From Oligoflexia bacterium (GTDB taxonomy: Bacteria > Bdellovibrionota > UBA1018 > CAIMNF01), in contig CAIKYX010000130.1 in NCBI GenBank assembly GCA_903831745.1, positions 5,653 through 69,652 on the forward strand: a stretch of 64,000 nucleotides of DNA, written 5' to 3'. The notes under the pieces were generated by a model. The model was not told the origin of the DNA. It searched no databases and saw nothing but the letters and a program-made list of their open reading frames with translations. Positions 7,399 through 42,950 of this stretch are shown here, one piece after another (positions within the stretch are counted from its first letter, which is position 1; every line of letters begins with the position of its first letter). The position numbers and the translations under genes were made by a program.

Positions 7399-7947
7399 TT
7401 AATTTAGGCAAACGAGATCTTTGACTGGGTAATACGCATCATCCGCACCTTCTTCTTGATACCAAAAGGGAGATTTCTTCAGCTGCGGATCTTCGGTAGC
7501 ACCCTCGAACGCATTATCATCCTGCACGCGAGTGTAAATCACTTCGGTGCCCATATTGTAATTGACGCGCGCACGACGATAGCTGAGGTGATGGCACAAA
7601 TCGGATGGCTCGTTGACATTAAAAAAACCACGCGCTTTTACACCATTGATACTCGCCGATAAAATGTGAGCGTTCTGCTCTTGATCGAGCGTGTATCCCA
7701 GACAAACGACGTATTTCTGAACGGGAGTATTGTTGCGACTATCGTGCGTCTGCTTTACGCACATTCGCTGCTCGCCCAAGTCTTCGACTGGAGGTTGGGC
7801 CATTGCTTTGTTGGCAATAACAGTCGTTAGCTTTGCGGGACCAGGAAGATTGATCACCGCCGTGTTGTCTGGAGTGTTTGCACGCGCACCACTCGGATTT
7901 AGAACAAAGCCCATGAAAATGCCGAGAATAATCCAAATTTTATTCAT
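7399..7947 (-). CDS. Hypothetical secreted protein
   Basis: Signal peptide MNKIWIILGIFMGFVLNPSGARA (internal start preferred over the 7956 start). Several Cys residues. No family recognised. Confidence 0.5.
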   Translation of the reverse strand: MNKIWIILGIFMGFVLNPSGARANTPDNTAVINLPGPAKLTTVIANKAMAQPPVEDLGEQRMCVKQTHDSRNNTPVQKYVVCLGYTLDQEQNAHILSASINGVKARGFFNVNEPSDLCHHLSYRRARVNYNMGTEVIYTRVQDDNAFEGATEDPQLKKSPFWYQEEGADDAYYPVKDLVCLN

Positions 7948-8052
7948 TGATATCACCTTCTCCGGATGCAGACCTGTCGCAATTTAACATTTTATGTTTA
8001 ATAAATCAATCTGCAATTTGCCAATCGATCTTGAATATGCGACCTAATTACC

Positions 8053-10040: not shown

Positions 10041-11189
10041 TTACCGTGAACGGCGCCTGAGTACGCGCTTATAAATCTCGAGCAATTTTTCTGTACGGGT
10101 GTTCCGATCATAATTCTGTCGGGCAAACTGCACTGCCCGCTTGCCCATGACCTTAAGCTCTTCAGGATCCTCTAAGATCATTCGGAGGCGGCGCTGTAAA
10201 TCAAACGAATCGCCTGATCGCATCAGGAGTCCGCCCTGCGAGTTACCGATCCACTCACTCGAATCGGGGCCTGAAGCACAGATAATCGGTGTTCCCATCG
10301 CCAGCGCTTCGATCGCCTGAAGCCCGAACATCGCCTTGCTCGAAGGGATGATATAAACATCGAGCGACCCCAATACTTTTGGAATCGATTCTTCGACGGG
10401 CGCCAAAATGATCTGATTTTGAAGATGAAACTGACGAATGAGTTCGATCAGATCTTCATTGCCGTTGTGCTCGAATCCGATAATCACAAACTTGGTGCGG
10501 GTCGCAAGCTCTTCGTTTCTTAAGAAAGAGGCTGCGGCCTTGATGAATGCGGCTTGCGCCTTCTTGTACTCCTGGGTCGCAATCATACCGACTACATAAT
10601 AGTCGGATTCGATTCCCCATTTCTTTCGAAGGACCGTAAAGTCAAAATGATCCGGATTGAAAATATTAAAATCGAGCCCTGGATGTACCACCCGCACTTT
10701 GTTCTCGAGAGTGGGTCTCATGCTTTGAATGCGCTTGCGAAGTGCTTGCGACGGAACCAACATGGCGTCAATGCGGGGATAGAAGAATGACTGAAAAATA
10801 TGTCGCCACTTTTTTCCGACCCGAGGCCCTTCCGAAACGACGATCGGAATCTTGGCCATTCTTACCATCCAAGGCAGGATGCTTCCGAGATATTCGGAAC
10901 CGAAAATATGAAGAAGGTTTGAATTTCCGGCTAACTGCTCATCAAGAAGATCACGGAAACCGCGATCGAGGTTGTGCGCGGGCGGCGAATCGAGTCCGAT
11001 GGCATGACTCTTACCGATTTGAATCACCCGATCATAAATCGGAGACCCTTTCATGCAAATGATTTTCCAATTCAAGCCGCGGCCATTCAGCTCGTAAATG
11101 TCTTCGAGCGCCAGCTGCTGGTCCTCGCCGAACCCCTGACTCAAATCAATGAATAAGACGGACGGGTCACGTTCTTGAAAAGAATCCAC
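10041..11189 (-). CDS. Glycosyltransferase family 4 (GT-B, retaining; LPS core/WaaG-like)
   Basis: 382 aa. C-terminal EX7E-like region GLQAIEALAMGTPIICASGPDSSEWI typical of GT4. 5' end overlaps the heptosyltransferase gene. Confidence 0.8.
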   Translation of the reverse strand: MDSFQERDPSVLFIDLSQGFGEDQQLALEDIYELNGRGLNWKIICMKGSPIYDRVIQIGKSHAIGLDSPPAHNLDRGFRDLLDEQLAGNSNLLHIFGSEYLGSILPWMVRMAKIPIVVSEGPRVGKKWRHIFQSFFYPRIDAMLVPSQALRKRIQSMRPTLENKVRVVHPGLDFNIFNPDHFDFTVLRKKWGIESDYYVVGMIATQEYKKAQAAFIKAAASFLRNEELATRTKFVIIGFEHNGNEDLIELIRQFHLQNQIILAPVEESIPKVLGSLDVYIIPSSKAMFGLQAIEALAMGTPIICASGPDSSEWIGNSQGGLLMRSGDSFDLQRRLRMILEDPEELKVMGKRAVQFARQNYDRNTRTEKLLEIYKRVLRRRSR

Positions 11190-12213
11190 GTTCTATTTCC
11201 TCTAATACCCGGCTCGCCGTAATTCCGACCAAGCACTGATTTTTTCTTTCATCTACAAACTGACACACATTTCTTTCACAAGGCCAACACTCGACCGGAT
11301 TGATCGTGACTTGCACTTTTCCTGGGCCAATGGGCTTGGTTCGTTTCGGATCTGCCGCTCCGCAAATGATCTGCACGTTGCTGCCACAAAGAGCAGCTAC
11401 ATGCGCCAGCCCCGATTCATTACAAACAGTAAACTGGGCCTGCCTGAAGAGTTTCCAGTGAGCTGCCACCCAACCCTTGCCTGTATAATCATCAACCCGC
11501 AATCCCCGTTCGAGAAACTTTTTGGCAATCTCGCGCTCGGCATTTCCGCCGATGACGATAGCTCGAAAATCCGTCCGTTCTTGAATCTTTTCGATGAGTT
11601 CAGAAAACTGCTCGACCGACCAACGTCTAGAGTCAGCTGTGGCGCCGGGGGCCAATAAAAAATAATTATCGCGAGGTGGCTCAATCGGAATCATGTCTGG
11701 CCAAAACGTGATGGGATCAAACGAGGTTTCTCCCGAATGGTTCCAGTAATCGACTGCCGGAAACCGCGTTCCCCCTTCGGGCTCGAGCAAATTCAGATAA
11801 GCCTGCGCACGATGAACGCCCGATCCCGGTACCCACGGCATTTTCTGCGTGAGCAACATGCCTCGAGCATCGGTGTGATATCCCCGACGCTCCTTTGCTC
11901 CTGCCCAGTAGAGTAGAAGCGCCGAGCTAAATGAATTCGGAAGAGAAATACCCAGATCCCATGGGCCACTTTGCTTCACTCTCTTTGAAAAATCACGGAT
12001 GGTCTGAAATGAACGATAGACAGAATCACCCTTTTTTTTGGGCAAAACAAATACCTCGTCAATCAAGCCCTTGAATTGAATATCGCGTACCCATTCGGTG
12101 CAAACCGATCCGATCCAGGCCTGGGGATAAGCCCGCCTAAGAAAGCGGTAGAAGGGATATGCCAAAACCTGATCTCCGATCCAGTTTGGGCTGCGAAGTA
12201 AAATACGTTTCAT
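11167..12213 (-). CDS. ADP-heptose:LPS heptosyltransferase (GT9, WaaF/WaaC family)
   Basis: 348 aa. MKRILLRSPNWIGDQVLAYPFYRFLRRAYP, ISLPNSFSSALL and NESGLAHVAALCG follow the GT9 heptosyltransferase pattern (compare E. coli WaaF YVLPNSF, NDSGLMHVAAAL). Confidence 0.82.
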   Translation of the reverse strand: MKRILLRSPNWIGDQVLAYPFYRFLRRAYPQAWIGSVCTEWVRDIQFKGLIDEVFVLPKKKGDSVYRSFQTIRDFSKRVKQSGPWDLGISLPNSFSSALLLYWAGAKERRGYHTDARGMLLTQKMPWVPGSGVHRAQAYLNLLEPEGGTRFPAVDYWNHSGETSFDPITFWPDMIPIEPPRDNYFLLAPGATADSRRWSVEQFSELIEKIQERTDFRAIVIGGNAEREIAKKFLERGLRVDDYTGKGWVAAHWKLFRQAQFTVCNESGLAHVAALCGSNVQIICGAADPKRTKPIGPGKVQVTINPVECWPCERNVCQFVDERKNQCLVGITASRVLEEIERGFFSRT

Positions 12214-13187
12214 AAAATCTTATCAAGAGCGACAGCGAAGGAACCCACTTTGAGTTTGGCTTCGATCCGCAATACGTAGCGATGGACATCTGCCGACAGC
12301 CACACCTTGTTGTCCTTGTTCTTGAGCTCGCCATTTTGGTAATTCTCGAGCTGATAGGCATCCGCTTCGAAATCACGTCCGCCGGCATAGATTTTCTCGC
12401 GTCCCAGATACCGAACCACCGATTCCCAGGGCTTGCCATCGAGAACCAACGGAAACCGAGTTTCCTTTCCTACTTCTTTCGGTAAGGCCAATACGCGGAA
12501 ATAATAAAGTGAAGAAAGCGGGTCTTGCGACCAAAGCGCTATGTCGTATTGTTCTTTTTGTTCCTTGAATCCCTTTTCGACATGGTCGACGCGGTTCCAA
12601 TAGAAGCTCTTTTTATTGTCGTAATCATAGAGCTCGATGACCTTGCGGGTCTGCTTGCTTTCATCGAGGTCCATGGTGAACTTGTGTGAGTACAAACCTT
12701 CCGCATCCCAGAAACTATCGATCTGATCATTCACGCGGTAGACCAGCTCGAATAGTTTAACCGTTTTTGCAGCACCATGCAGATGATAGACTTTGCGATC
12801 ATCGACGGTCTTCATCGGCAACACTTCGGTATTAAAATATCCGGCTGTGACTCCGATAAAACGAATTCCGTAAGCGAGTTTTTCACCCACTTCAAATGGC
12901 ATGGGGTCGATCGTGCGAACCGGCGGAACGAGAACCTGTTTGGTCACTTTAGGCTCCTTCTTGGGTGCCTTCTTCTTTTTTGAGCGAGTAGGTTGAGTTA
13001 CCACCACCGACTCGGGAGTCGGCGTAGGAGTAGCATCCTTGACTTCAAATCGCTTGGCAATATCAGCAGGGATCTCTTTTTGAAGATCTTCGTCTTTGAA
13101 TTTTCTGAGGTTGCTTGACGAGGAGCAGCCTTGAATAATCAAGATGAGGCTGAAAGATACGGTAGAGACTACGACGCTCGGTTTCAT
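12210..13187 (-). CDS. Lipoprotein of unknown function (possibly DUF3108-like), Lys/Pro-rich linker
   Basis: MKPSVVVSTVSFSLILIIQGCSSSS is a lipobox. Low-complexity TPTPTPESVVVTQPTRSKKKKAPKKEPK linker, then a beta-rich domain. Translationally coupled to the lpxB-lpxK gene. Confidence 0.5.
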   Translation of the reverse strand: MKPSVVVSTVSFSLILIIQGCSSSSNLRKFKDEDLQKEIPADIAKRFEVKDATPTPTPESVVVTQPTRSKKKKAPKKEPKVTKQVLVPPVRTIDPMPFEVGEKLAYGIRFIGVTAGYFNTEVLPMKTVDDRKVYHLHGAAKTVKLFELVYRVNDQIDSFWDAEGLYSHKFTMDLDESKQTRKVIELYDYDNKKSFYWNRVDHVEKGFKEQKEQYDIALWSQDPLSSLYYFRVLALPKEVGKETRFPLVLDGKPWESVVRYLGREKIYAGGRDFEADAYQLENYQNGELKNKDNKVWLSADVHRYVLRIEAKLKVGSFAVALDKIL

Positions 13188-13189
13188 TC

Positions 13190-15277
13190 TTAAATCATTC
13201 TAACGAACGACGCGTTGCTTTGCAAACGCTCAAATACTTGATTTAGCCAATCTTTTGAGTCTATTTCACGCCTCAAAACAAAGAAATCCTGCTCTGAAAA
13301 ACCCTGTTCTACCAGTTTCACAAAGTCTTTTTCAGTGACACTGAGGATCGAACCATCCTGCCTGGCCTGCCCGATCAGATCCCTGACTTCTGATGCTTCA
13401 AATAGAGAGTGATCTGGCTTGGCAATCACCCTTCTGACGCGGACTCCGGCTTGTTGGTAAAAAAAGGCCACTCGCGAAGGATTTGCTACTGCACAAAGAA
13501 TCCAAATTGGTTTTTCAGGGACCGCGTTGATTTTAAATTGAAGTGAATCCGTGTTCAGCACTTGCTCTGCAAATCTTTGCTGCCCAAAAAAATCGCGATA
13601 AACTACCTCACTTCGAGCCCGACCGGTCATGAGCAGCAAAGTGTGCAAGGACTTAAAACTGAGGTTCTGAAAACCATCATCAAACAGAATCAGATCGACC
13701 TCGGGCAACAATTCAAGGGTGCGTACCCGGTTCGCTCCGATTCCGAGATAAACCACTGGTACGGCCTTTCTAATTTCGGCAGGCTCATCACCCACCTCAC
13801 TGGCAAGCGCCGGCTTCGAAGGCTCGATGACGCGTGACACACTATTTTTTGAGCCATAACCTCGACTCACCACTGCGACCCGCATTTTGCGTCTCACCGC
13901 TTCCTTGGCCAGCGCAATCACGACTGGAGTCTTACCCGAACCGCCTGCCTGAAGATTACCCACTAGCACAGAAGGTGTTTTTACCTGAACGGTAGACAGA
14001 ATTCCGAGGCGATGAAGCGTGCGCCTGACCCAGTTCACCGACGACCACACCTGCGACGCAAGATAGATCAAGAAAGTCTGGTGAATACGCTCGATTTGAT
14101 AAGGTTTCTGCTCCTGCCAATTGAATAACTTTTCAGCCACTCGCACACCCAGATCAACATGTGGAACCAATGATTGCTTTAAACCATCCGCCCGGACCCG
14201 CACTTGCTTCTGCAATTCCTGATCCTGGTAGAACCGTAAAAGTGCATCTGAAAGTGACGCTGGCGTTGCTTCAGGCCCCAAAAACTCGGGAAACACACTC
14301 TTCGCCCGATCGCGAATACCCATCAGAATGTTTGGTAAACCGATAGGCCCCGCATAACGAATTCCGAATTGAAAAATCCATTCGGTAATCTGATTTACTT
14401 TGTAAAAGATGACCGGCACACAACCCAGAACAGCCGCTTCGAGTGTCGAGGTACCCGATTTAATGAGCCCGAGCGGAGCACTTCGTAAGCACGAAACAGA
14501 ACCGTCGACCACGAATTGGTAATGAACTCTCGACGTATCTTTTAAGAATTGGCGAACTTTTCCATCGTCGAGCGAACCTGGAATCGGCACGAGTGCTTGA
14601 ATCCGCTTTGAAATCTTTTGGGAAAAAAGCTCGAGGGTCTCGGGAATGACCGGCAAATGGTACTTAAGCTCTCCGTCACGACTTCCGGGCATGACCGCAA
14701 CAGCAAGTTCATCCGACTTCGTTGGAATGACCTTCACTTCGGCCGCCAGCAAATCCTGAATGAGCGGGTTTCCTTCATAAATGACCGGAATGCCGCGAGC
14801 TTCATAGAAGTCTTTTTCAAAAGGCAGAATGACCCACACCCCGTTGTAAAGCTGTCTGATCTTCTCGACCCGCTTTGATCTCCAGACCCAAACTTTCGGA
14901 GGAATGCCACAAACCTTGAGCGCTCGAGCAGAAAAGGGCTGAATACTCTTCATCAACTTGAAATGAAAATCCGGATAGTCAAAAGTGATGATGAGATCAG
15001 GGTCGTAATCCTGAATGAACCGCTTCGCCCGATGCAGGACATTACGAATATGAAAGAGCTTGCCAAGAACCTCTACGAAGCCCATCGCGCGCAACGATTC
15101 GGCCTTTTCGATACACTGAAAGCCCGGCAATGAGCGGAGCTTTTCGCCCCCGATTCCTGCAATTTGAATCTTCTTTCCGGATTTTTCGAGACGCTGGGAT
15201 AACGCTGAGAGGATAATCGTAGCGTGGATATCGGATGAGACTTCCGCCGCAGAGACGAATACCCTCATTTCAGGCAA
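13190..15277 (-). CDS. lpxBK: Bifunctional lipid-A-disaccharide synthase / tetraacyldisaccharide 4'-kinase (LpxB-LpxK fusion)
   Basis: 695 aa. Residues 1-380 match LpxB (VFVSAAEVSSDIHATIILSAL...GFVEVLGKLFHIRN...DYPDFHFKL). The C-terminal ~320 aa match LpxK with the P-loop VLVGNLQAGGSGKTPVV (compare LpxK GNITVGGTGKTP). An alternative start MRVF at 15268 would give a 4-nt overlap with lpxA. Confidence 0.85.
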   Translation of the reverse strand: MPEMRVFVSAAEVSSDIHATIILSALSQRLEKSGKKIQIAGIGGEKLRSLPGFQCIEKAESLRAMGFVEVLGKLFHIRNVLHRAKRFIQDYDPDLIITFDYPDFHFKLMKSIQPFSARALKVCGIPPKVWVWRSKRVEKIRQLYNGVWVILPFEKDFYEARGIPVIYEGNPLIQDLLAAEVKVIPTKSDELAVAVMPGSRDGELKYHLPVIPETLELFSQKISKRIQALVPIPGSLDDGKVRQFLKDTSRVHYQFVVDGSVSCLRSAPLGLIKSGTSTLEAAVLGCVPVIFYKVNQITEWIFQFGIRYAGPIGLPNILMGIRDRAKSVFPEFLGPEATPASLSDALLRFYQDQELQKQVRVRADGLKQSLVPHVDLGVRVAEKLFNWQEQKPYQIERIHQTFLIYLASQVWSSVNWVRRTLHRLGILSTVQVKTPSVLVGNLQAGGSGKTPVVIALAKEAVRRKMRVAVVSRGYGSKNSVSRVIEPSKPALASEVGDEPAEIRKAVPVVYLGIGANRVRTLELLPEVDLILFDDGFQNLSFKSLHTLLLMTGRARSEVVYRDFFGQQRFAEQVLNTDSLQFKINAVPEKPIWILCAVANPSRVAFFYQQAGVRVRRVIAKPDHSLFEASEVRDLIGQARQDGSILSVTEKDFVKLVEQGFSEQDFFVLRREIDSKDWLNQVFERLQSNASFVRMI

Positions 15278-16044
15278 CCACTCTCGCTTTTTCTCATAAA
15301 GTCTACCAATTGCTTCACTTCCGGAATTTCGCCATATTGCGTTTCGATTTCAAGCAGGCATTGTTCTTTGGTGACATCGGTTCGTTTCCAAAGTTTCAAT
15401 GACTCATTGATCGCCGTAATGGTCTCGGCCTTATAACCTTTTCTGCGTAATCCGATGATATTCGCGCCCTTGATTTCGCACGGACGTTGGCCCACCACGA
15501 TCGCAAAAGGAGGAACATCACGTACCACTGCCGACATACCGCCGACATAACTATGAGTACCTACTCTTAAGAACTGGGACACTCCGACCATGCCGCCGAT
15601 ATTGGCATAATCCTCGATGGTCACATGTCCGGCCATCCCTGAAGAGTTTGCAAAAATACAGTGACTGCCCACAATGCAATCATGTCCAAAATGCACATAA
15701 GCCATCAGAAGATTGTGACTACCGAGCACCGTCTTTCCGCCACCCTGAACCGTTCCGAGATTCAGTGTCACTGATTCGCGGATCGTATTGTGATCACCGA
15801 TAATGAGTTCGGTTTTCTCGCCTTTGTATTTCAAATCCTGCGGAATTGCGCCGATGACCGAAAACGGAAAGAACACGTTGTCGGTTCCGATCGTCGTCCA
15901 GCCATCTACAACCACATGACTGATCAGCTTCGTGCCTTTTCCTATTCGAACATTCGCACCCACCGTACAAAACGGCCCGATCTCGACGTCGTGATCGATC
16001 TGCGCTTCTGCATGTACCAAGGCTGTCGGATGAATTTTAGTCAT
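15265..16044 (-). CDS. lpxA: Acyl-ACP--UDP-N-acetylglucosamine O-acyltransferase
   Basis: 259 aa. MTKIHPTALVHAEAQIDHDVEIGPFCTVGANVRIGKG hexapeptide-repeat left-handed beta-helix, with a C-terminal helical domain. Confidence 0.92.
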   Translation of the reverse strand: MTKIHPTALVHAEAQIDHDVEIGPFCTVGANVRIGKGTKLISHVVVDGWTTIGTDNVFFPFSVIGAIPQDLKYKGEKTELIIGDHNTIRESVTLNLGTVQGGGKTVLGSHNLLMAYVHFGHDCIVGSHCIFANSSGMAGHVTIEDYANIGGMVGVSQFLRVGTHSYVGGMSAVVRDVPPFAIVVGQRPCEIKGANIIGLRRKGYKAETITAINESLKLWKRTDVTKEQCLLEIETQYGEIPEVKQLVDFMRKSESGCLK

Positions 16045-16053
16045 AAATACCTC

Positions 16054-16593
16054 TTAAAAGACCTGTCGTTTAGAATTTGGAATCAGGTTCGCAAGCAGAG
16101 TGGCTTCGGCAACCAACTTACCCTCAACAAATGCCTTACACCCGAACTTCCACAAAGAAGTGCGGCACATCAGCACGGTAGTTTCGATCTTTAAGACATC
16201 GCCGGGAGTGACCGGCGCACGAAATCTCGTGTCTTCAAGCCCCACCAGCACGGTTTGATAAGACTCACCTTGCTGTTGAATCTTTTTGATCGCGTTCGGG
16301 TACATCGAAAAACTTGCCACTTGGGCCATCGTTTCGATGATCATCACGCCTGGCATGATCGGCACACTCGGAAAGTGCCCTTGAAAAAACGGCTCATTGA
16401 TGGCCACGTTTTTTTGCCCGATCACTTTCAAACCCACCTTACGCTTCATGTCTTCATCATCGACTGGATGGTCACTGGTGATTTCTAGAATTCGATCCAC
16501 CATCAAAAACGGAAAACGGTGAGGAAGAAACTCTTGAATCTGTTTCTGATCCAGATGAAACGGGTTTTTTTCAGTAGTATTTTCAGAGGCCAT
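16054..16593 (-). CDS. fabZ: 3-hydroxyacyl-ACP dehydratase
   Basis: 179 aa. LPHRFPFLMVDRILE...PFFQGHFPSVPIMPGVMIIETMAQV hot-dog fold signature. Confidence 0.92.
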   Translation of the reverse strand: MASENTTEKNPFHLDQKQIQEFLPHRFPFLMVDRILEITSDHPVDDEDMKRKVGLKVIGQKNVAINEPFFQGHFPSVPIMPGVMIIETMAQVASFSMYPNAIKKIQQQGESYQTVLVGLEDTRFRAPVTPGDVLKIETTVLMCRTSLWKFGCKAFVEGKLVAEATLLANLIPNSKRQVF

Positions 16594-16595
16594 AA

Positions 16596-17672
16596 TTATT
16601 TCCTTCCACGATCTTTTAATAGTCTTTGCTGAATTGCTAGTATTCGATAGTGATCTTTCAGCGGTCTAGCGGGAACTCCCGCCATTTCAGCTCCCGATTC
16701 AACGTCTTTTGCGGCGCCGGTGTATCCGCCCAATTTTGCATAGTCTCCGACGTGAACTTGGTTGGCTGTTCCGGACTGACCCCCTATGACCACAAATCTT
16801 CCAAGTGAAGAACTTCCGGCCATACCGGCACAACCACAAAGTACCGAGCCTTCGCCGACTTCGCAGTTATGACCAATCTGAACCAAATTATCTATTTTAA
16901 CCTGTTTGTGAATCCGAGTGCTTCCCAAGGTTCCTCGGTCGATCGTCGAATTGGCACCGATTTCGACTTCGTCTTCAATGATGACATTGCCAACATGATA
17001 AATCTTCTGATGTCGGATTGGCAGTTTGCTGGCCGGGTCTATGACCGGTGCATATCCAAAACCATCGCCGCCAATCACAGCTCCCGCATGAATTCTACAG
17101 TTCTTACCGATCACCGTTTTTTCATAAAGGGTGACTCTCGGAAATAAAACCGTATTTTGCCCGATAGTCGAATTGGGCCCGATGTAGCAATGCGGATAAA
17201 GGACCACGCCTGATTCGATCTCGACGCCCGTCTCGATGACCACTCCCGCGCCGATCTTCACACCCTTGCCGATCTTGGCGGAATCATCAATGACTGCCGA
17301 AGGATGAATTTCGCTTTCAACTGACGGAACCTGATGATCATGATCAGACAGGTGCTTCGAAAACTCGCCCGACAGAACCGCCATGGCTAAATAAGGATCG
17401 TCACATGCGAGAAAAACCGACGACTTCCACTGGGGAATTCCCGCCGCCTCGAGCGGTGCCACGAAGGCTTTTCCGGTGACGATTACACCAGCCTTAGACC
17501 TTAAAAGTTCGTTTTGATAATTTTTAGAAAAAAAGAAGGCAACGTCGCCAGCCCCAGCTTCTTGCAAGGTAGCGAGTCCGGTAAGCTTTAATTGCGACAA
17601 AAGCGCACCGACCAAGTTTTCATTGGCCACGTGCGCTTTGATCAAATTCTTTAATTCGTTGACGTTAAACAT
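16596..17672 (-). CDS. lpxD: UDP-3-O-acylglucosamine N-acyltransferase
   Basis: 358 aa. N-terminal UDP-binding domain plus extended hexapeptide repeats ([24 protein letters not shown]...). Position between fabZ and skp. Confidence 0.92.
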
Positions 17673-17687
17673 CGTTTTCGAATTCGA

Positions 17688-18230
17688 TTAATCGAGTCCT
17701 TTCATGACTTCCTCGGTAATATCGTCCTTCTCTTGCGAGTAGATGACGATATTCTCGTTTTTCTCGAGAACCAGGTTCAAATTCTTCTTTTTCGCAATTT
17801 CAGACACTTTTTCGCGAATCTTGACGATGATCGGCTGACTCATCTCTTGTTCTTTTTTCTGAATCTCAGCTTGAGACTTCTGAAGCGTATCTTGATACTT
17901 CATGAATTTTTCTTGAAGCTTGGCTTGTTGGTCTTTCTTGGCAGACTCGCTGAGAGCCGCTTGCTTTTTCTGGAACGCTTCCTGATCTTTTTTCAGGGTC
18001 GCTTCCTGATCCTGGAGTTCCTTTTTCTTCTTATTGAAAGCCTGTTCGAGTTCGCCTTTGGCTTTTTTGCCGGCAGGAGAAGTCTGGATGGCTTTTTGCA
18101 TGTCGATGATACCAATTTTCATGTCATCCGCACGGGCGAAACCCGCATTCAAAACAAGTGCACTCACGACAAACGCGATAGTTGCTAAACGATTCATTAC
18201 TTTCAGTTTCCTTTCTGTTTCTACCGACAC
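17688..18230 (-). CDS. skp: Periplasmic chaperone Skp/OmpH
   Basis: 180 aa. Signal peptide, then Lys/Glu/Gln-rich coiled-coil (KKKKELQDQEATLKKDQEAFQKKQAALSE). Canonical position between lpxD and bamA. Confidence 0.85.
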   Translation of the reverse strand: MSVETERKLKVMNRLATIAFVVSALVLNAGFARADDMKIGIIDMQKAIQTSPAGKKAKGELEQAFNKKKKELQDQEATLKKDQEAFQKKQAALSESAKKDQQAKLQEKFMKYQDTLQKSQAEIQKKEQEMSQPIIVKIREKVSEIAKKKNLNLVLEKNENIVIYSQEKDDITEEVMKGLD

Positions 18231-18247: not shown

Positions 18248-20629
18248 TTAAAACGGCTGTCCAATGAAGAAAATAAAGACCGGGCTTTCTTCAATTTGCT
18301 GAGTGGTTTTAACCACTCTTCTTCCAATCGGAAATCCCCATTCGAAGCGCAAAGGCCCGAGCGGAGAAAACCAGCGAATTCCAAATCCGTAATCTTGTCT
18401 GAGATCAAGGCTCGCACTCTTATCGATTCCGGGAATACCATAAAAAGTATTTCCGATATCGTAGAACATCACCCATTTGATTCCGGCTTCCTTGATCAAC
18501 GGATGTTCGATCTCGAAAAGTGAGAACATTTCTGAGGCGCCACCGACTTTTTCGACACTGCCGTCCGGACGCATCAGGATCGGAGCAAGCGAGAAAGCAT
18601 CGTAACCGCGCATATTCCAAGGACCACCGAGAAAGAAGGATTCAGAAGGAGGAATCCCTTTTCCACCTGTATCGATCATTCCACCTACTTCGGTGCTGTT
18701 CTTGAAGACAAAGTTGCCGATGAAATTGTCATAGAAACGATTGTTCAACGTAATCTTCGCAAAGTTCTTGGCCCCACCAATACCCGCGTATTCGAGCGAG
18801 GCGTTTTGATAGTTTCCGCCGGTGGTCTCGAAGCGGTTATTTCGTTTATCGCGAACTGCGCTGAATACAACACTCGAGAGATTTCCGACGTCGAGTGAAT
18901 CATTGACTGAGATTCCTTGAATCGGAGGAGTCGCACTGAGGTTCTGTGCCACTGCATAACTCTGAAGGACTCGAAGGTTTTCGAGTTTATAAGTGATGAA
19001 GCCCTGAATATCGTCAGTCAACGGATGACCGAACTTCAGATGAATTCCCGATCTACGAATCAGATAGCGATCCGGAATCGGTGCATTGCTCATGAACAAG
19101 TCAAATCCCGCGCTCCAATCGGTATCAAACGCATACGGATCCATGAATTCGAGACTGAAGCTGCGAACCAGATCTTGGCGACCCCACTGGGTTTCAAACG
19201 CAATGCTTTGTCCGGTTCCAAACAAGTTGATTTCTTGAACCTTACCTTGAAAAAAGAATCCTTGAACCGAGCTGTATCCCGCACCGAGGGTCACACTGCC
19301 GGTAGAACGCTCTTTTACCTGAATGTCGATATCGACTACGTCATCACGGCCCTTGCGTGGCACCTGATTGAACTGAACTTCACCGGGAGAGAAGAACCCC
19401 AGACGCTCGACCCGTTCTTTAGAGACGCGGAGTTTTGATCCACTGAACAACTCGCCTTCGTAAATACGAAGCTCGCGACGGATGACCTTATCGTAGGTCT
19501 TCGAGTTTCCGAGAATATGAATCTCGCCGAAATGGACGAGGTTGCCTTTTTCGAAACCGTAATCGACGGAAACAGTCTTGGCGTCCTCATTAAAATCCAT
19601 TTTCGGAACCACGTTCGCAAACGCATAGCCCAAATCCTGATACTTTTCAGTCAAACGCTGAATGTCGGCATTTCGCGTGGTGATACTGAAAGTATCTCCT
19701 TCGAGTAACTTGATTTCTTTTTTGAGGTCGTCCTTAGAGAAAAGCAGGTCGCCGCTGAAGTCGTAAGAGCCGATCTTGTACTGATCGCCTTCTTCGACAT
19801 AAACCGAGATATAAACATATTTTTTATCATCACTGATGGTGATGATCGGGTTTTCGAATTTGAATTTGAGATAACCGTTATCGAGATAGAAATACTGGAG
19901 GCGCTGAAGATCGATCTTAAACGATGCTTCCTTGAAAGTTCCTGAACTCGAGAGAATGCTTACCGAGTTACCTTCTTTGGTTTCCTGGAACACTGACTTG
20001 AGCTTCTCGTCTGCGAATTTTTTATTATTCAGGAATACGATCTGCTTGATCTCGACCTTGTCGTAATCTGCCACCTTGTACACGAGTTTGACTTCGCCAT
20101 CTTTGTCGGGGCGAACGTCATAAGAAACCTTGGCCAGGTAATAACCCTTTTCCTCGTAATGTTTCTGAATGAGGTCGACGTCCTGTTGGGCCTTATTGAC
20201 GTCGAGAATGTTCCACTTTTTGACTTTGACCACTTCTTCGAGATCGGTCGTGGTGATCTTGTCATTGCCTTCGAACATGACTTCGTTGATGACCGGACGC
20301 TCTTTGAACGTAAACGTAAGGGCAACACCTGCGGGAGCGGCATCTTTCGAGATGTCGATTTCATCGAAATAGCCCATTCCGTAAAGAGCCTCGATATCGG
20401 TACGCAAGGTATCGGCGTTATATTCGGCACCTGGCTTTGAACTAATTTTTTCGAGGATGGCATCACGCTCGATGCGCTTCAAACCGACGGTTTTGACCTC
20501 GGTCACCTTCTCATTTTCTGCGAAGGCGCTAGGCGTAAACGACAAGGGTGTAATCAGCCATGATGCAATAAATAACGTCAAAAGTTTCACTAGACTTACG
20601 GTCTTATCACAAGGAAATGATTTTTCCAT
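18248..20629 (-). CDS. bamA: Outer membrane protein assembly factor BamA
   Basis: 793 aa. N-terminal signal peptide, five POTRA-like repeats, and a C-terminal 16-strand beta-barrel ending ...FIFFIGQPF (aromatic C-terminus). Confidence 0.92.
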   Translation of the reverse strand: MEKSFPCDKTVSLVKLLTLFIASWLITPLSFTPSAFAENEKVTEVKTVGLKRIERDAILEKISSKPGAEYNADTLRTDIEALYGMGYFDEIDISKDAAPAGVALTFTFKERPVINEVMFEGNDKITTTDLEEVVKVKKWNILDVNKAQQDVDLIQKHYEEKGYYLAKVSYDVRPDKDGEVKLVYKVADYDKVEIKQIVFLNNKKFADEKLKSVFQETKEGNSVSILSSSGTFKEASFKIDLQRLQYFYLDNGYLKFKFENPIITISDDKKYVYISVYVEEGDQYKIGSYDFSGDLLFSKDDLKKEIKLLEGDTFSITTRNADIQRLTEKYQDLGYAFANVVPKMDFNEDAKTVSVDYGFEKGNLVHFGEIHILGNSKTYDKVIRRELRIYEGELFSGSKLRVSKERVERLGFFSPGEVQFNQVPRKGRDDVVDIDIQVKERSTGSVTLGAGYSSVQGFFFQGKVQEINLFGTGQSIAFETQWGRQDLVRSFSLEFMDPYAFDTDWSAGFDLFMSNAPIPDRYLIRRSGIHLKFGHPLTDDIQGFITYKLENLRVLQSYAVAQNLSATPPIQGISVNDSLDVGNLSSVVFSAVRDKRNNRFETTGGNYQNASLEYAGIGGAKNFAKITLNNRFYDNFIGNFVFKNSTEVGGMIDTGGKGIPPSESFFLGGPWNMRGYDAFSLAPILMRPDGSVEKVGGASEMFSLFEIEHPLIKEAGIKWVMFYDIGNTFYGIPGIDKSASLDLRQDYGFGIRWFSPLGPLRFEWGFPIGRRVVKTTQQIEESPVFIFFIGQPF

Positions 20630-28544: not shown

Positions 28545-29659
28545 TCCTGGTCGATATGAAAAAGATCTTTTTGTGAAAAAGCCTGCAGAGACGCTGAAAA
28601 ATCCTGCTTCATGCTGCCTTCATCAAGATATCCCACCCAATTGATTTTCGGAAACATCGACCCGCCAAAAAGCTCTTTAAAATGACTGATCGACACTTCT
28701 TTCGCCGAGGCTTGATACAACCAATGCGGCCCGAAATAAAGCTCACCCAGCTCGTAAAACAAAAACCCCAACTTGCGGTAATGCAGAATCGCTTCCCATT
28801 CGAGAATATGCCGCGGCGAATATTCACGCTCATATTCCTCGAGATTCGCCTGCGACCAACTCCAAACCATTTTTGAAAACTCACCACAATACAAAAAACT
28901 AATGGGTTTTTCTTCGACAAAGGCCACAAAAAGGCGCGCTTGCCCCTGGTGAGCACGGGCGAGCATGGCATCCCAGGTCGAGTGAGGCCTGGTCCACCGT
29001 CCCGCTGAAAGATAATGGGCATTCTTAAAAGCCGCGAAATTCGCGTCGAGTTCTTGAGCGCTTTCACTAGCAGAAAAAGATCGAACACTTACGCCCTTTT
29101 TGGCGGCCTGCCTGACGTTGATTCGGTGCGATTTAGAAACGTTATTTAAGAGCGTCTCTTCAGGCAAACTCAGGTTCATGATGGCAGTATTCTTGATATC
29201 CGAAAGGAATCCATACTTCTTCATCTCGAATCCATTTTCAAAACCCACGAGACTCTGATCGCACACCCCTCGGGTAATCGGGTGACTGATCATTCGCACC
29301 TTTTTTGCCCCTGCTTCTCGAGCGATACCGTAAACCTGTGCAAAAACCTCGGCAGAGATCTTGCGACGCAGTGTTGGCTGAATGGTGACGAACGCAGGTG
29401 CGGCTAATGGATTTCCACCCAGTGACAGTTCGTTTTCACCGGTTTTGGTATTTTTAGTCAGACCCAAAGCACAAACCGCAAGCGGGGTCTTTTCGTTTTC
29501 AAGCAAAATGAATGATTTTTGCTCTGTATTTTCATCAAAAAGTTGATTGTAATGAAGCCAATCCCAGCCATGCTGGTAAGTCGCTTCTTGAATCTGATTT
29601 ACCCAACCATCCCATTGTTCGCGCGTCGTCGCCTGGTGATGCTTGACTTTAAACTCCAT
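28541..29659 (-). CDS. FemAB-family / GNAT-fold acyl- or aminoacyl-transferase (Acetyltransf_6/DUF482-like)
   Basis: About 372 aa, starting at MEFKVKHHQ (ATG 29657-29659; 11-nt overlap with the pseI stop). Two-lobed GNAT-like architecture resembling FemX/FemAB peptidyl-transferases (LFVAFVEEKPISFLYCGEF...YSPRHILEWEAILHYRKLGFLFYELGE). Confidence 0.6.
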   Translation of the reverse strand: MEFKVKHHQATTREQWDGWVNQIQEATYQHGWDWLHYNQLFDENTEQKSFILLENEKTPLAVCALGLTKNTKTGENELSLGGNPLAAPAFVTIQPTLRRKISAEVFAQVYGIAREAGAKKVRMISHPITRGVCDQSLVGFENGFEMKKYGFLSDIKNTAIMNLSLPEETLLNNVSKSHRINVRQAAKKGVSVRSFSASESAQELDANFAAFKNAHYLSAGRWTRPHSTWDAMLARAHQGQARLFVAFVEEKPISFLYCGEFSKMVWSWSQANLEEYEREYSPRHILEWEAILHYRKLGFLFYELGELYFGPHWLYQASAKEVSISHFKELFGGSMFPKINWVGYLDEGSMKQDFSASLQAFSQKDLFHIDQD

Positions 29660-30710
29660 TTCGAACCATCTCCCAACGAAGCGCCTGCCCTCTGAGAAGC
29701 GGTACTTTTGCCGTGCCCGCAAGAACCTGATCCATGTGTTTCGGATCAAGGCCATGTCCCGGTCGAATGATTCTTACATTTTCGTTCGTAAACTTCTCGC
29801 CGGCCTGCATGTCTTTGATGACGTAGATCGAACGCTTGAATTGAATCGACTTCTTTTCTCCCTCAGACAACTCGAAAGTCATTTTACCCAAACCCTGCCA
29901 CGCACGAAGCGACTCATCGACCAACAACTTTAACTCGTGGGGTTCCATCGAAAACGCAGAATCGACTCCACCTTCGGCCCTACTTTCGGTAAAATGCTTC
30001 TCGATCACTCGTGCGCCAAGCGCAATACTCGCGACTGACACACCGATTCCGAGCGTGTGGTCCGACAAACCAATATTCAAATCGAGTTTTTCGCGCAAAA
30101 AAGGAATGGTCATCAGATTGGTTGCCAGAGGTGATGCGGGATACGTGCTGGTACACTTTAGAAGAATCGCATCGCTTGCGCCTTCCTTCTTTAGAAAGGC
30201 ATCGAGCTCTTGAATATGTTCGAGCGAGGATATGCCGAGCGAAATAATGACGGGTTTTCCGGTTTTGATTACCTTTCGAATCAGAGGATAATGATTGTTT
30301 TCGAAAGAGGCGATTTTGTAGCATGGTGGATTGAACTGTTCCAGAAAATCGACCGCTGCTTCATCAAAGGGCGTACTGAAACAGATCAGGCCATGTTTTT
30401 TGGCGCGTTCAAAAAGAGCCGCATGCCATTCATACGGGGTATTGGCCTCTTGATACAATTCATAAAGTTTTCGACCCGCCCAAAGGCTCTTGGGATCTTG
30501 AATGATAAAATCAGGAGCATCACAGTCGATGGTCAGACTATCCGGCGTATAGGTTTGAAGCTTGATCGCCTGTGCGCCCGCTGCTGCCGCAAGGTCGATC
30601 AATTTAAGGGCCCGGTCTACCGAATGATGGTGATTACCAGAGAGTTCAGCAATGATGAACGGTGGATGATCCGGACCGATCTGATATTTTCCAATTGAAA
30701 CAGTTTTCAT
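29649..30710 (-). CDS. pseI: Pseudaminic acid synthase (NeuB family)
   Basis: 353 aa. MKTVSIGKYQIGPDHPPFIIAELSGNHHHSVDRALKLIDLAAAAGAQAIKLQTY is the NeuB TIM-barrel start. C-terminal antifreeze-like SAF domain. Neighbours are pseG/pseF/pseB/pseC. Confidence 0.85.
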   Translation of the reverse strand: MKTVSIGKYQIGPDHPPFIIAELSGNHHHSVDRALKLIDLAAAAGAQAIKLQTYTPDSLTIDCDAPDFIIQDPKSLWAGRKLYELYQEANTPYEWHAALFERAKKHGLICFSTPFDEAAVDFLEQFNPPCYKIASFENNHYPLIRKVIKTGKPVIISLGISSLEHIQELDAFLKKEGASDAILLKCTSTYPASPLATNLMTIPFLREKLDLNIGLSDHTLGIGVSVASIALGARVIEKHFTESRAEGGVDSAFSMEPHELKLLVDESLRAWQGLGKMTFELSEGEKKSIQFKRSIYVIKDMQAGEKFTNENVRIIRPGHGLDPKHMDQVLAGTAKVPLLRGQALRWEMVRNGV

Positions 30711-30762: not shown

Positions 30763-31752
30763 ATGCGAATCCTCTTTAGAGTCGACTCATCGCTCGAAAT
30801 CGGAACCGGACATGTGGTTCGCTGCCTTTCACTTGCCCATGCACTGAGAAACAATGGACATCAAGTGTCTTTTTGGAGCCTTGACCTTCCGGGCAATGAT
30901 CTTTCGTCAATCAGAAAAAATGGTTATTCGCTGTTTGATCCTGCTTCTTCAGATCGATTTGATCTGGCGATAGTAGACCATTATGGAATTGATCAGGAAG
31001 GCGAAAACCATATCAGACAATGGGCGACCTCGCTTGTTGCCATTGATGACTGGGGAACCAGACTTCATCACGCCGATTTGATTCTCGACCCATCGGTAAG
31101 CACCCAATCGACCCTTAGAATAAAAGCCAATCCAACCACACCGTTTCTGACCGGATTTGATTGGCTGCTCATGCGGGATGATTTCAAGAAACTTCATCCA
31201 GAAGTTCCACCTCGAACTGAATTTAAAAAGGTACTTTTGTTTTTTGGTGGAACCGATCCGCAGAGCCAGTGCCTGAGTTACCTCGAAGCACTCCTTCAAT
31301 CACAAAACGAATTCAATCATCTTGAGTTTCACATGATGGTTTCGGCAGTCCATCCAACACTCAAACAAATGCAGAGCCTGAAATTGCCAAATCATGTTCA
31401 TCTTGAAGTTTCTCCGCCCTCCGTTGCAAAGCTCATGAGAAATTCAGATCTCTATCTGGGAAGTAGCGGCACCGTCACCTGGGAAAGAATGGCCATGGGC
31501 CTGACCGGCTTGATCGTTTCGGTAGTAGATAACCAAGAGGACATTGCGAAAAACCTCGACCAAATGGGGTTTCATCGTTATCTCGGAAAATGCCAGGACG
31601 TTACCCCGAAGTTTGCATTGGAAAAGCTCAAGGAATTACTGAATCAAAGTGAAATGATTTCAAGAATGTCGTCTCTTTGTTATCAAAAAGTCGACGGACA
31701 AGGAGTCGATCGATTCGTTCAGGAGCTAGAGAATCGATTCAAAGCCACTTAG
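30763..31752 (+). CDS. pseG: UDP-2,4-diacetamido-2,4,6-trideoxy-beta-L-altropyranose hydrolase
   Basis: 329 aa. MRILFRVDSSLEIGTGHVVRCLSLAHAL is the PseG hallmark N-terminus (RxDxSxxIGxGHVMRC). GT-B-like MurG/GT28 C-domain. Confidence 0.8.
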   Translation: MRILFRVDSSLEIGTGHVVRCLSLAHALRNNGHQVSFWSLDLPGNDLSSIRKNGYSLFDPASSDRFDLAIVDHYGIDQEGENHIRQWATSLVAIDDWGTRLHHADLILDPSVSTQSTLRIKANPTTPFLTGFDWLLMRDDFKKLHPEVPPRTEFKKVLLFFGGTDPQSQCLSYLEALLQSQNEFNHLEFHMMVSAVHPTLKQMQSLKLPNHVHLEVSPPSVAKLMRNSDLYLGSSGTVTWERMAMGLTGLIVSVVDNQEDIAKNLDQMGFHRYLGKCQDVTPKFALEKLKELLNQSEMISRMSSLCYQKVDGQGVDRFVQELENRFKAT

Positions 31753-36687: not shown

Positions 36688-37362
36688 TTATTCCTGAATC
36701 AAGGCCAGATAGTCCCGCCAAGGACGATCGTACCCTATTTGTTTCACTAGTTTTGAAATGACTTGAAAATCTTCTTCGCGATCGACAGTCAGGCGGATTT
36801 TGCTTTGATCAATACCCTGGGCATGATTTCCGAGCTTAAATATTTCGGGATGTTCCCAAATATACGGGGTAACATGTTCGGTCTCGCGAGGTTTCGACGC
36901 TTCATCAAAAGCCCGTTTCAGAGCACTGAATCGAAAGATTTCTACATCGAGTCCATCCGGATAAGTCGCAGGGTGAACATTCGAATAGTAATCAAAATCC
37001 GATTTTTCGAATTTTTGCAGCATTTCGTCGATCATCGCACCGTCGTTCAAAGGACAATCAGAGGTAACTCGAATGACTGTCTCGGGTTGATAGCGTTCGG
37101 CTGCGCGGTAAAACCGTTCAAGCACATGGTGAAGTGACCCGCGATAAGAAAGACAGCCCATTTTTGTTGCAATCGAAACAATTTCTACCGACTCGGGCTC
37201 GTCCGTTGTTGCCACCATGATTGCGTCAGAAAGATGCGACCACTTAAGTCGGTGCAAATGAATCTCAAGTAGAGTCACTCCATCGATGGTCTTCAGAACT
37301 TTGCCCGGAAGCCTGGTTGAACCAAAGCGAGCCTGAGTGATGATCAGAGTTTTCATTTCCAA
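36688..37362 (-). CDS. pseF: Pseudaminic acid cytidylyltransferase (CMP-NeuAc synthetase family)
   Basis: 224 aa. MEMKTLIITQARFGSTRLPGKVLK (CTP_transf_3 signature). Confidence 0.8.
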   Translation of the reverse strand: MEMKTLIITQARFGSTRLPGKVLKTIDGVTLLEIHLHRLKWSHLSDAIMVATTDEPESVEIVSIATKMGCLSYRGSLHHVLERFYRAAERYQPETVIRVTSDCPLNDGAMIDEMLQKFEKSDFDYYSNVHPATYPDGLDVEIFRFSALKRAFDEASKPRETEHVTPYIWEHPEIFKLGNHAQGIDQSKIRLTVDREEDFQVISKLVKQIGYDRPWRDYLALIQE

Positions 37363-39375: not shown

Positions 39376-40386
39376 TTACGCCTCGAAATGGTGGTCAACA
39401 TGTTCCTTGATCTGGACCCTTAATTCTTCAGCCGACAACCATTCTGTGTTTTCGCCCGAATTGTATTTAAACCCTTCGGTAACAAATTTTGCCGAAAACT
39501 TTTTCAGGTAATCGTCTTTCTTCCAGTTCGGATGACTTGGAATGATGACATAATACTTTCCGCAATCGAGCGTATTCAGCGAATCTGATTCAGTAATCAT
39601 CTCTTCGTGTAACTTTTCGCCCGAGCGAATTCCCACGATCTCGGTCTTACATTTCGGACCAATGGCTTTTGCCATTTCGAGAATTCGATAAGAAGGAATC
39701 TTCGGGACGAAAATCTCGCCGCCCCAGGAATTTTCGAGCGCATGAAGTACCATCTTTACACCCTCTTCTAGCGTAATATTGAAACGGGTCATGTTTTCGT
39801 GCGTTACTGGCAGCGTTCCGGTCGAACGCATTTTCATGAAAAACGGAACCACAGAGCCGCGAGAGCCAAGCACGTTTCCGTAGCGGACCACCGAAAAAGT
39901 GAGATCGCGTTTTCCCTTAATATTATTGGCAGCAATGAAAAGCTTGTCCGAGCATAGTTTGGTTGCACCATACAGATTCACCGGTGCCGCCGCCTTATCG
40001 GTCGAAAGCGCAACCACCTTGGTGACACCGCAATCGAGGGCTGCGTTGATGACATTTTCGGCGCCGAAAATATTGGTGTTGATACATTCCATTGGATTGT
40101 ACTCGGCAGTCGGAACCTGCTTGAGCGCCGCTGCATGGATGATGATGTCGACACCTTCACAAGCACGTTTCATGCGGGCACCATCTCGAACATCACCAAT
40201 GAAATATCTCATTTGCGGATATTTCTTCGGATCAAATTGCTGGGCCATTTCGAATTGCTTGAGTTCGTCCCGTGAGTAAACAATTAATTTTTTTACTTCG
40301 GGATAAAGCTCCAGAACCATCTGAATGAATTTTTTTCCGAAAGATCCGGTTCCACCGGTTACCAATATGGTTTTACCTTTTAGCAT
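39376..40386 (-). CDS. pseB: UDP-N-acetylglucosamine 4,6-dehydratase (inverting)
   Basis: 336 aa. MLKGKTILVTGGTGSFGKKFIQMVLELYPEVKKLIVYSRDELKQFEM...HAAALKQVPTAEYNPMECINTNIFGAENV...YGATKLCSDKLF is near-identical in pattern to Campylobacter/Helicobacter PseB (FlaA1). Confidence 0.92.
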   Translation of the reverse strand: MLKGKTILVTGGTGSFGKKFIQMVLELYPEVKKLIVYSRDELKQFEMAQQFDPKKYPQMRYFIGDVRDGARMKRACEGVDIIIHAAALKQVPTAEYNPMECINTNIFGAENVINAALDCGVTKVVALSTDKAAAPVNLYGATKLCSDKLFIAANNIKGKRDLTFSVVRYGNVLGSRGSVVPFFMKMRSTGTLPVTHENMTRFNITLEEGVKMVLHALENSWGGEIFVPKIPSYRILEMAKAIGPKCKTEIVGIRSGEKLHEEMITESDSLNTLDCGKYYVIIPSHPNWKKDDYLKKFSAKFVTEGFKYNSGENTEWLSAEELRVQIKEHVDHHFEA

Positions 40387-42182: not shown

Positions 42183-42950
42183 ATGATTCCTGATGAATTC
42201 AGATTAGGGCTGTTTCAATGTGACCTCACCTGGGAAAACACTTCAGCCAACCTCTCCAGACTCGAAGCTCTCGGCCCCGAGTTCGCAGGCACCTGCGACT
42301 TGCTGCTGGTTCCCGAAACCTTTTCAACGGGCTTTACCTCAAAACCTGCCGGACTCGCACTCAATGAGCAAAACGGCGCGCTCGAACGAATCATTCAGGT
42401 GGCTAAAAACCTTAAAACCCACGTAGCAGGATCATTCATCTGGAAACATGAAAACACCTACCGCAATCGCTTTATACTGGTAAACGAACTGGGAATTCAG
42501 GGGCACTACGACAAACATCATCTTTTTGGTCTAGGTCAAGAGACCCAGTTATTTCAAGCCGGAATAGAGAGGACCACTTGGATGGTCGGTGGCTTCAAGA
42601 TTGCCCCGTTTGTTTGTTATGACTTGAGATTTCCAGAATGGTGCGGAAATTCCGAAAAGTGCGATTTGATGATTTTTTGCGCAAATTGGCCCGAGGCCCG
42701 AGTCAGCCATTGGAAGACGTTGCTGAACGCAAGGGCAATCGAGAATCAATGCTACGTTGCAGGCGTGAATCGAATCGGGCGCGACGGAAACCAACTCACC
42801 TATTCGGGCGACAGCCTGGTCATCGATGCGAACGGATCGACGCTTTTGGATTCAGGGGCGACCGAATCACTTAAAATAGTAAAACTATCAAAATCTAACC
42901 TGGCCGCTTACCGCAATAAACTACCGTTTTTGAACGACCGCTTTCAGTAA
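42183..42950 (+). CDS. Carbon-nitrogen hydrolase family (nitrilase/omega-amidase-like)
   Basis: 255 aa. Starts MIPDEFRLGLFQCDLTWEN. The catalytic E-K-C triad context includes ...VCYDLRFPEW (Cys). Confidence 0.78.
   Translation: MIPDEFRLGLFQCDLTWENTSANLSRLEALGPEFAGTCDLLLVPETFSTGFTSKPAGLALNEQNGALERIIQVAKNLKTHVAGSFIWKHENTYRNRFILVNELGIQGHYDKHHLFGLGQETQLFQAGIERTTWMVGGFKIAPFVCYDLRFPEWCGNSEKCDLMIFCANWPEARVSHWKTLLNARAIENQCYVAGVNRIGRDGNQLTYSGDSLVIDANGSTLLDSGATESLKIVKLSKSNLAAYRNKLPFLNDRFQ

Follow-up and report, generated by a model that had tools for sequence, protein, structure and literature searches.

We analyzed a 64,000-nucleotide stretch of the genome of an Oligoflexia bacterium of the Bdellovibrionota, a relative of predatory bacteria (hereafter "the window"; contig CAIKYX010000130.1 of assembly GCA_903831745.1) and found that lpxB, the gene for lipid-A-disaccharide synthase, and lpxK, the gene for the kinase acting at the next step towards lipid IVA, are fused in one open reading frame (ORF). 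Judging from comparisons with homologues and from a structure prediction, the product is very probably a genuine bifunctional LpxB-LpxK enzyme. The same fusion was found across the clade to which the window belongs and in many metagenomic protein clusters, and both halves carry the catalytic residues of their families, one substrate ligand of LpxK excepted.

A single reading frame encodes LpxB and LpxK

The ORF occupies positions 13190..15277 of the minus strand, ends with a TAA stop (13190-13192) and, in the ORF listing of the window, comprises 695 aa counted from a TTG at 15277. We scanned it end to end and found neither a stop nor a change of frame, and both Pfam domains were recovered from it. 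A preliminary description of this DNA had reported one 695-aa ORF made of LpxB and LpxK, with a continuous frame between the domains; both statements hold, and to them we add the minus strand, absent from that account. In public collections, the identical protein (P0001) is called with 692 aa, from the ATG at 15268. This ATG shares the tetranucleotide ATGA (15265-15268) with the TGA stop of lpxA, and the N-termini of homologues align to the Met encoded there. For these two reasons ATG 15268 is the likely true start, giving a protein of 692 aa. The ATGA overlap is also indicative of translational coupling between lpxA and the fusion.

The N-terminal part of about 380 aa, proposed beforehand to be LpxB, was recognized as such by Pfam, by sequence matches in the PDB and by its predicted fold. 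The family profile PF02684 matched residues 6-369 with 207.1 bits (cutoff 22.6), covering profile positions 1-358 of 374, and the best PDB sequence match (phmmer) was E. coli LpxB (5w8n/5w8s, E ~3e-25). Residues D98, R201, E281 and N316 of the E. coli enzyme, with catalytic and UDP-binding roles (PMC5785501), correspond to D100, R200, E280 and N316 in the window. All four are invariant in an alignment of 21 fused homologues (28-56% identity), on which our statements about residue conservation are based. An AlphaFold2 (AF2) model of the monomer, built on the same alignment, had a mean predicted local distance difference test (pLDDT) of 90.3 and a predicted template modelling (TM) score of 0.80, and displayed the two Rossmann domains of the GT-B fold. 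Its top Foldseek match in the PDB was again 5w8n (E 3.5e-15, TM-score on target 0.64); the high root-mean-square deviation to this entry is expected for a crystal chain with swapped domains. In the homodimer of E. coli LpxB the C-termini are exchanged, and the last helix packs on the N-domain of the partner (PMC5785501); helix 376-389 of our model is the counterpart of that last, swapped helix.

The C-terminal part of about 320 aa had been described as LpxK with a P-loop, and a possible failure of this half to match LpxK profiles had been considered at the same time. It passed the cutoffs of both profiles: PF02606 (LpxK) matched from residue 402 with 155.3 bits (cutoff 27), and the NCBIfam lpxK equivalog TIGR00682 scored 113.6 (cutoff 91.95). 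The best PDB sequence match was Aquifex aeolicus LpxK (4ehw/4ehx, E ~2e-13), and the AF2 model superimposed on the same enzyme (4ehy) in Foldseek with TM-scores up to 0.74. Columns G440, N441, G445, G446, G448 and K449 of the P-loop are invariant in the fused homologues. Other residues whose roles are established in A. aeolicus LpxK (PMC6286764) could be mapped as well: K51/T52 correspond to K449/T450, R72 to R472, D99/E100 to D497/E498, R119 to R517, the Walker B pair D138/D139 to D533/D534, and H261 to H623, while H143 is changed to N538. Except for N538, and for T450 with a conservation of at least 90%, all mapped residues are invariant in the alignment.

Foldseek also returned, after LpxB and LpxK structures, a respiratory complex I accessory subunit of about 500 aa from Tetrahymena thermophila (8b6f_A0, 8gym_T1, 7tgh_T1). 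These matches extend over 457-498 columns, longer than one query domain, at 14-15% identity.

The junction retains the amphipathic helix of LpxK

From N- to C-terminus, the junction in the AF2 model consists of the last LpxB helix (376-389), a linker (390-401), a second helix (402-423), the first LpxK strand and the P-loop. The least confident residues of this region fall in the linker, and LpxB-only relatives terminate within the equivalent stretch. The region of about 14100-14300, initially indicated for the junction, was thus approximately right, the linker itself lying slightly downstream (Table 1).

In helix 402-423, W411 is invariant and S408 and S412 are nearly so. The helix is amphipathic, with a hydrophobic moment of 0.46-0.54 and a mean hydrophobicity of about 0. 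We considered a transmembrane span here and rejected it, the Kyte-Doolittle 19-residue maximum ahead of the P-loop being only 0.86 in the window; a membrane-spanning helix usually needs about 1.6. The same maximum averages about 1.0 in fused proteins and 1.47 in separate LpxKs, reaches 2.6 in Ignavibacteriota, and in E. coli LpxK is presumably 1.52. Helix 402-423 is the counterpart of the amphipathic helix at the N-terminus of A. aeolicus LpxK; there, the helix and a basic patch jointly attach the enzyme to the membrane, and activity depends on the helix (PMC6286764). Since both catalytic domains must be cytoplasmic, a membrane-spanning helix between them is topologically impossible; an interfacial, monotopic helix is thus what the fusion demands, and the fusion in turn speaks for it.

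Distribution of the fusion in Bdellovibrionota

A word-indexed search yielded about 100 clusters (at 90% identity) of proteins carrying both Pfam domains and 30-55% identical to the window protein; their named sources were metagenome-assembled genomes (MAGs) of Bdellovibrionales or Bdellovibrionota. An exhaustive HMMER scan covered 1.84 billion representatives of clusters at 50% identity and gave 22,877 relatives of LpxB or LpxK; 57 of the best 150 were two-domain LpxB-LpxK proteins, so that at least 57 such clusters are fused. We then used a reference set with one genome per species, in which the loci were checked one by one with hidden Markov models (HMM) specific for each half. True single-ORF fusions were present in 10 reference genomes (L003-L012), and about 30 other Bdellovibrionota genomes had lpxK directly after lpxB in a different frame. 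A survey of related genomes, suggested when the ORF was first described, thus recovers the same fusion repeatedly.

In a neighbour-joining tree of the LpxB halves, every one of the seven reference genomes in the clade of the window has the fusion, as does the sister group (L010). In a more distant Bdellovibrionota clade (clade II), fused forms are intermixed with separate ones. The spacing between the GLPN motif of LpxB and the P-loop of LpxK has a median of 127 residues, and is exactly 127 in 38 of 92 proteins. Matches of tblastn across both halves in Ignavibacteriota/Melioribacteraceae were discarded as fusions: in these genomes the genes are separate, with a DUF374 gene between lpxB and lpxK.

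Two further groups depart from this picture. A subclade of LpxB-only proteins (P0067, P0069 and P0071; 407-410 aa) is nested inside an otherwise fused clade. Its contigs carry lpxL-lpxA-lpxB, followed by a PF06258 (ELM1-like GT-B) gene at the place expected for lpxK; here lpxK could have been secondarily lost or relocated, or the 4' step replaced. Separately, the proteins P0138, P0143 and P0152 are fused LpxB-LpxK with longer linkers of 40-78 residues, and their LpxB halves are nearest (38-40%) to stand-alone LpxB from Nitrospinae and Desulfobacteraceae MAGs (L057, L060 and L061). On this similarity, they suggest independent fusions beyond Bdellovibrionota.

Probable origin from an overlapping gene pair

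Separate lpxB and lpxK genes, often not even adjacent, had been assumed to be the usual state in proteobacteria. This is true of E. coli-type proteobacteria; in Bdellovibrionota the two genes are typically neighbours with a 4-nt overlap. In 22 of the 30 separate-gene loci, the lpxK start and the lpxB stop overlap in an NTGA, with lpxK in the +2 frame, so a one-base indel is enough to fuse the genes. Since lpxB and lpxK are normally adjacent and overlapping in this phylum, the fusion is a small step.

From this arrangement we infer that the fusion originated by a one-base indel at such an overlapping pair. In the ancestral state, which most Bdellovibrionota still show, translation of lpxK would have begun within the same NTGA that closes lpxB. 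Loss of one base close to the 3' end of lpxB would have moved the ribosome into the lpxK frame and past the stop, the old lpxK start codon would have become an internal residue, and the fused state would then have been fixed in the window's clade. The mixed pattern in the distant clade is consistent with fusion or fission having happened repeatedly, and some of the cases there could be assembly errors. A neutral origin, with the indel fixed by drift, fits all data; the conserved spacing and the repeated origins are the possible exceptions.

Proposed function

Most likely, from the conservation of both active sites, the protein is a membrane-surface bifunctional "lipid IVA synthase". Its LpxB domain would condense UDP-2,3-diacylglucosamine with lipid X to tetraacyl-disaccharide 1-phosphate, and its LpxK domain would use ATP to phosphorylate the 4'-OH of this product, yielding lipid IVA. 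The protein would act at the cytoplasmic face of the inner membrane, with both catalytic domains in the cytoplasm and the internal helix 402-423 lying in the membrane interface, where it would dock the protein together with the hydrophobic and basic surface of LpxB. The peripheral LpxB would thereby gain the membrane anchor of LpxK, and the disaccharide intermediate would be made beside the kinase that consumes it. Because both activities reside in one chain, their stoichiometry would be fixed at 1:1 and they would be co-localized. By analogy with E. coli LpxB, the fusion is expected to be dimeric, carrying an LpxK module at either end, beside the N-domain of the partner. Architecture, conserved residues, fold, gene context, distribution and the features of the junction are what the data show; from them we infer that the protein has both activities, that it is dimeric and how it is oriented at the membrane, and likewise any kinetic benefit of being fused. 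The preliminary description held that the fusion couples two consecutive steps; this is plausible, kinetic coupling or channelling being a possibility only.

A more elaborate version of the bifunctional enzyme can be envisaged, and we consider it unlikely as a whole. The fusion would be a selected, obligate domain-swapped dimer, in which the helix is both connector and main anchor and the disaccharide 1-phosphate passes directly from LpxB to LpxK. Such a hand-off would keep the free pool of this intermediate low; in E. coli, the disaccharide 1-phosphate has been proposed as a signal for LpxC degradation. If coupling itself was selected, the fusion would for that reason have arisen repeatedly: fixed in the window's clade, sporadic in the second Bdellovibrionota clade, and probably independent in the lineage with Nitrospinae/Desulfobacteraceae-like LpxB.

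Alternative explanations

Some observations weigh against a canonical bifunctional enzyme, or limit how far it can be pressed. The LpxB half scored 154.9 with the NCBIfam lpxB equivalog TIGR00215, under its strict cutoff of 190.25. In the LpxK half, N538 (codon 13664-13666) replaces H143, the ligand of the 1-phosphate; of the three head-group ligands, R72 and R119 are kept as R472 and R517, and the third is this Asn. A six-frame HMM scan found no second lpxB or lpxK in the 64-kb window, which is the extent that it covered. Fixation in the clade is read from a neighbour-joining tree that covers a single domain and carries no support values. Two ENA contigs (L001 and L002) encode the identical protein; their DNA matches the window at 100% identity, and they therefore do not count as a second, independent observation of the sequence.

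That a one-base indel from a sequencing or assembly error falsely joined separate, overlapping lpxB and lpxK genes we regard as extremely improbable. A single-base change at the NTGA overlap of the relatives would indeed yield exactly such a fusion, the DNA-identical contigs may come from the same or related reads, and part of the interleaving of fused and separate forms in clade II could reflect errors in some MAGs. However, the same in-frame fusion is present throughout the reference genomes of the window's clade and in dozens of metagenomic clusters from many projects (42-56% identity), so that a hidden frameshift or stop at the domain junction, an initial concern, is not supported. The junction aligns in frame, with W387, S408, W411 and S412 conserved and a conserved inter-domain spacing, contains no homopolymer run in the window sequence, and keeps no lpxK-type start codon with a Shine-Dalgarno (SD) motif. 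It is the clade-wide in-frame conservation, together with the conserved spacing between GLPN and P-loop, that makes the case against an artefact.

The fusion could also be real without the two enzymes acting as one. A separate LpxK might be made additionally or even mainly, by internal initiation or by proteolysis of the linker, the part of the junction modelled with least confidence. Where the LpxB domain ends, codons Q388-E389 contain an AGGAG (14111-14115, minus strand), perhaps the remnant of a ribosome-binding site; the lpxK start of separate-gene relatives, 37-48 residues ahead of the P-loop, is near this position. Nevertheless, there is no ATG, GTG or TTG 5-12 nt downstream of the AGGAG, in neither the window nor the 10 fused reference loci does the junction hold an in-frame start codon preceded by an SD-like motif, and two fused loci have no start codon of any kind there. 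Initiation from the AGGAG was rejected on these grounds, and since no fused junction has an SD-preceded in-frame start, synthesis of a separate LpxK by internal initiation appears unlikely. As the short linker (about 12 residues) and the conserved spacing suit one folded unit better than a cleavage site, we judge separately acting enzymes very improbable overall. It is likewise highly improbable that one half of a real fusion is non-canonical, for instance with an LpxK of altered specificity or a structural, anchoring role, the true kinase being encoded elsewhere or no 4'-phosphate being needed. The position of H143 is Asn in the window and in most of the clade, and His in many of the more distant clade II fusions. 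The nested LpxB-only relatives, with a PF06258 gene in place of an adjacent lpxK, imply that the 4' step is evolutionarily labile in the group, and the lipid A of Bdellovibrio bacteriovorus has been reported to carry mannose in place of phosphate at positions 1 and 4'. Against this stand the invariant equivalents of the catalytic and head-group residues of LpxK other than H143 (T52 being the one at 90% or more), and the score of the half above the TIGR00682 equivalog cutoff. In A. aeolicus LpxK, the H143A mutation raises the Michaelis constant only about 7-fold (PMC6286764), and an Asn can still form a hydrogen bond with the phosphate. We therefore retain the bifunctional LpxB-LpxK enzyme as the best description of this gene.

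Genomic context

The fusion belongs to a packed minus-strand operon with the genes trxB, lolCE/lolD-like ABC genes, bamA, skp, lpxD, fabZ, lpxA, lpxB-lpxK, a DUF3108 gene, and genes for GT9 and GT4 glycosyltransferases (Table 1). The part from bamA to lpxB (bamA-skp-lpxD-fabZ-lpxA-lpxB) is a classical outer-membrane biogenesis cluster. Synteny of the upstream bamA-skp-lpxD-fabZ genes is kept in related loci, and the downstream order DUF3108-GT9-GT4 is identical in nine of ten fused loci.

The DUF3108 protein has a signal peptide and a lipobox-like IQGC motif. Its gene comes after lpxB-lpxK in 9 of the 10 fused loci, and in 21 of the 30 loci with separate genes it is found close by, which suggests an unrecognized role in lipopolysaccharide (LPS) or outer-membrane biogenesis. 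The more distant Bdellovibrionota clade has a gene for an lpxL-type acyltransferase (PF03279) between lpxK and that for the DUF3108 protein, a position at which the window has none.

The contigs L001 and L002 (window 11908-16550, in separate ENA assemblies) both break near 11908-11911 and 16550, and the last 33 bases of L001 diverge completely from the window. These breaks may be strain-variable boundaries or repeat-induced assembly breaks.

From about 26 to 64 kb (about 26700-63500), the window contains a large region of surface-polysaccharide and sugar-nucleotide genes. Besides the genes in Table 1, it includes three DegT-type aminotransferases, several epimerases/dehydratases and GT2 glycosyltransferases, a content that suggests nonulosonic-acid and heptose-type sugars. 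Four ORFs of the window had no Pfam match at E<=1e-4: 42944-44896 (minus strand, 650 aa), 59625-61610 (plus strand, 661 aa), 30763-31752 (plus strand, 329 aa) and 7399-7956 (minus strand, 185 aa). The 329-aa ORF matched the HMM of the LpxB half very weakly (E 0.0012) and may be a distant GT-B protein. No tRNA genes, nor Rfam families at the gathering threshold, were found in the whole 64 kb, which leaves no RNA marker for taxonomy.

Table 1. Features of the lpxB-lpxK fusion, its neighbourhood and the related loci mentioned in the text. Positions refer to the window unless a locus is named.
Feature	Positions	Strand	Basis or remark
LpxB domain (GT19, GT-B fold), residues 4-389	14111..15268	minus	Pfam, phmmer, Foldseek, conserved residues
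Inter-domain linker QKPYQIERIHQT, residues 390-401 (12 aa)	14075..14110	minus	AF2 secondary structure, pLDDT
Former N-terminal membrane helix of LpxK, now internal, FLIYLASQVWSSVNWVRRTLHR, residues 402-423	14009..14074	minus	AF2 helix
LpxK kinase body, residues 424-695	13193..14008	minus	PF02606, TIGR00682, alignment to 4ehw/4ehx, Foldseek
Walker A / P-loop GNLQAGGSGKTP, residues 440-451 (G440-P451)	13925..13960	minus	read from sequence
lpxA	15265..16044	minus	Pfam Hexapep and Acetyltransf_11; sequence
fabZ	16054-16593	minus	Pfam
lpxD	16596-17672	minus	Pfam
skp	17688-18230	minus	Pfam
bamA	18248-20629	minus	Pfam
DUF3108 protein, 325 aa	12210-13187	minus	Pfam; starts 2 nt past the stop of the fusion
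GT9 heptosyltransferase-like	11167-12213	minus	Pfam
GT4 glycosyltransferase	10041-11189	minus	Pfam
NeuB	29649-30710		polysaccharide region
CMP-sugar cytidylyltransferase	36688-37362		polysaccharide region
ABC exporter	40380-42089		polysaccharide region
PfkB-kinase/cytidylyltransferase fusion	47109-48614		polysaccharide region
lpxL/DUF374 neighbour, locus L011	4266-5192		example
lpxL/DUF374 neighbour, locus L018	8168-9112		example
lpxL/DUF374 neighbour, locus L044	7127-7780		example
LpxB-only subclade, locus L083	4001-6335		
LpxB-only subclade, locus L084	1966-4300		
LpxB-only subclade, locus L085	2694-5030		

Comparison with known systems and significance

The LpxB half shares with E. coli LpxB (GT19; 5W8N/5W8S/5W8X) the family, the GT-B fold, the residues D98/R201/E281/N316 and the position after lpxA. 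The two differ in sequence (about 22% identity, with the window half under the TIGR00215 cutoff) and in the C-terminus, which is not free in the window, the last helix running on into the linker and LpxK. With A. aeolicus LpxK (4EHX, 4ITL and 4LKV), the second half shares family, fold, P-loop, Walker B, D99/E100, H261, R72 and R119, at about 23% identity and with N538 for H143. The amphipathic helix before the P-loop is retained, but it is internal in the window and N-terminal in A. aeolicus; it is also less hydrophobic than in stand-alone LpxKs. The separate lpxB/lpxK pairs of Bdellovibrionota (L013-L037, among them L030, a MAG labelled Bdellovibrio sp. ZAP7) have the same operon and gene order, lpxK directly following lpxB, and encode homologues with 30-37% identity. 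Unlike the fusion, they give two polypeptides from different frames overlapping in NTGA, and many have lpxL after lpxK, where the window lacks it.

A parallel is the LpxC/FabZ fusion of Bacteroidetes, Chlorobi and Verrucomicrobia, in which neighbouring genes of the lipid A cluster are likewise fused in one ORF (PMC3087551). That fusion is already documented, and its enzymes, in contrast to LpxB and LpxK, are not consecutive on the same intermediate. The 2010 survey of the Kdo2-lipid A pathway describes the lpxC/fabZ fusion and the clusters lpxD-fabZ-lpxA-lpxB and waaA-lpxK, and does not mention an lpxB-lpxK fusion (PMC3087551); our full-text literature searches found no description of one. Each half is thus an ordinary, if divergent, member of its family; what is new is the architecture, which seems to be undescribed. 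In public records both Pfam domains are precomputed for these proteins, yet the proteins are named for one enzyme or as hypothetical, and consequently pathway reconstructions of these Bdellovibrionota would wrongly lack lpxB or lpxK.

The current understanding of lipid A synthesis is not overturned by the fusion. It is a clean case of gene fusion from a gene pair overlapping by 4 nt, and it provides independent evolutionary evidence for an interfacial, non-spanning LpxK helix. LpxB is prone to aggregation and LpxK is bound to the membrane. In a natural protein that unites them in one chain, both steps, their orientation at the membrane and a possible hand-off of the intermediate could be studied together.

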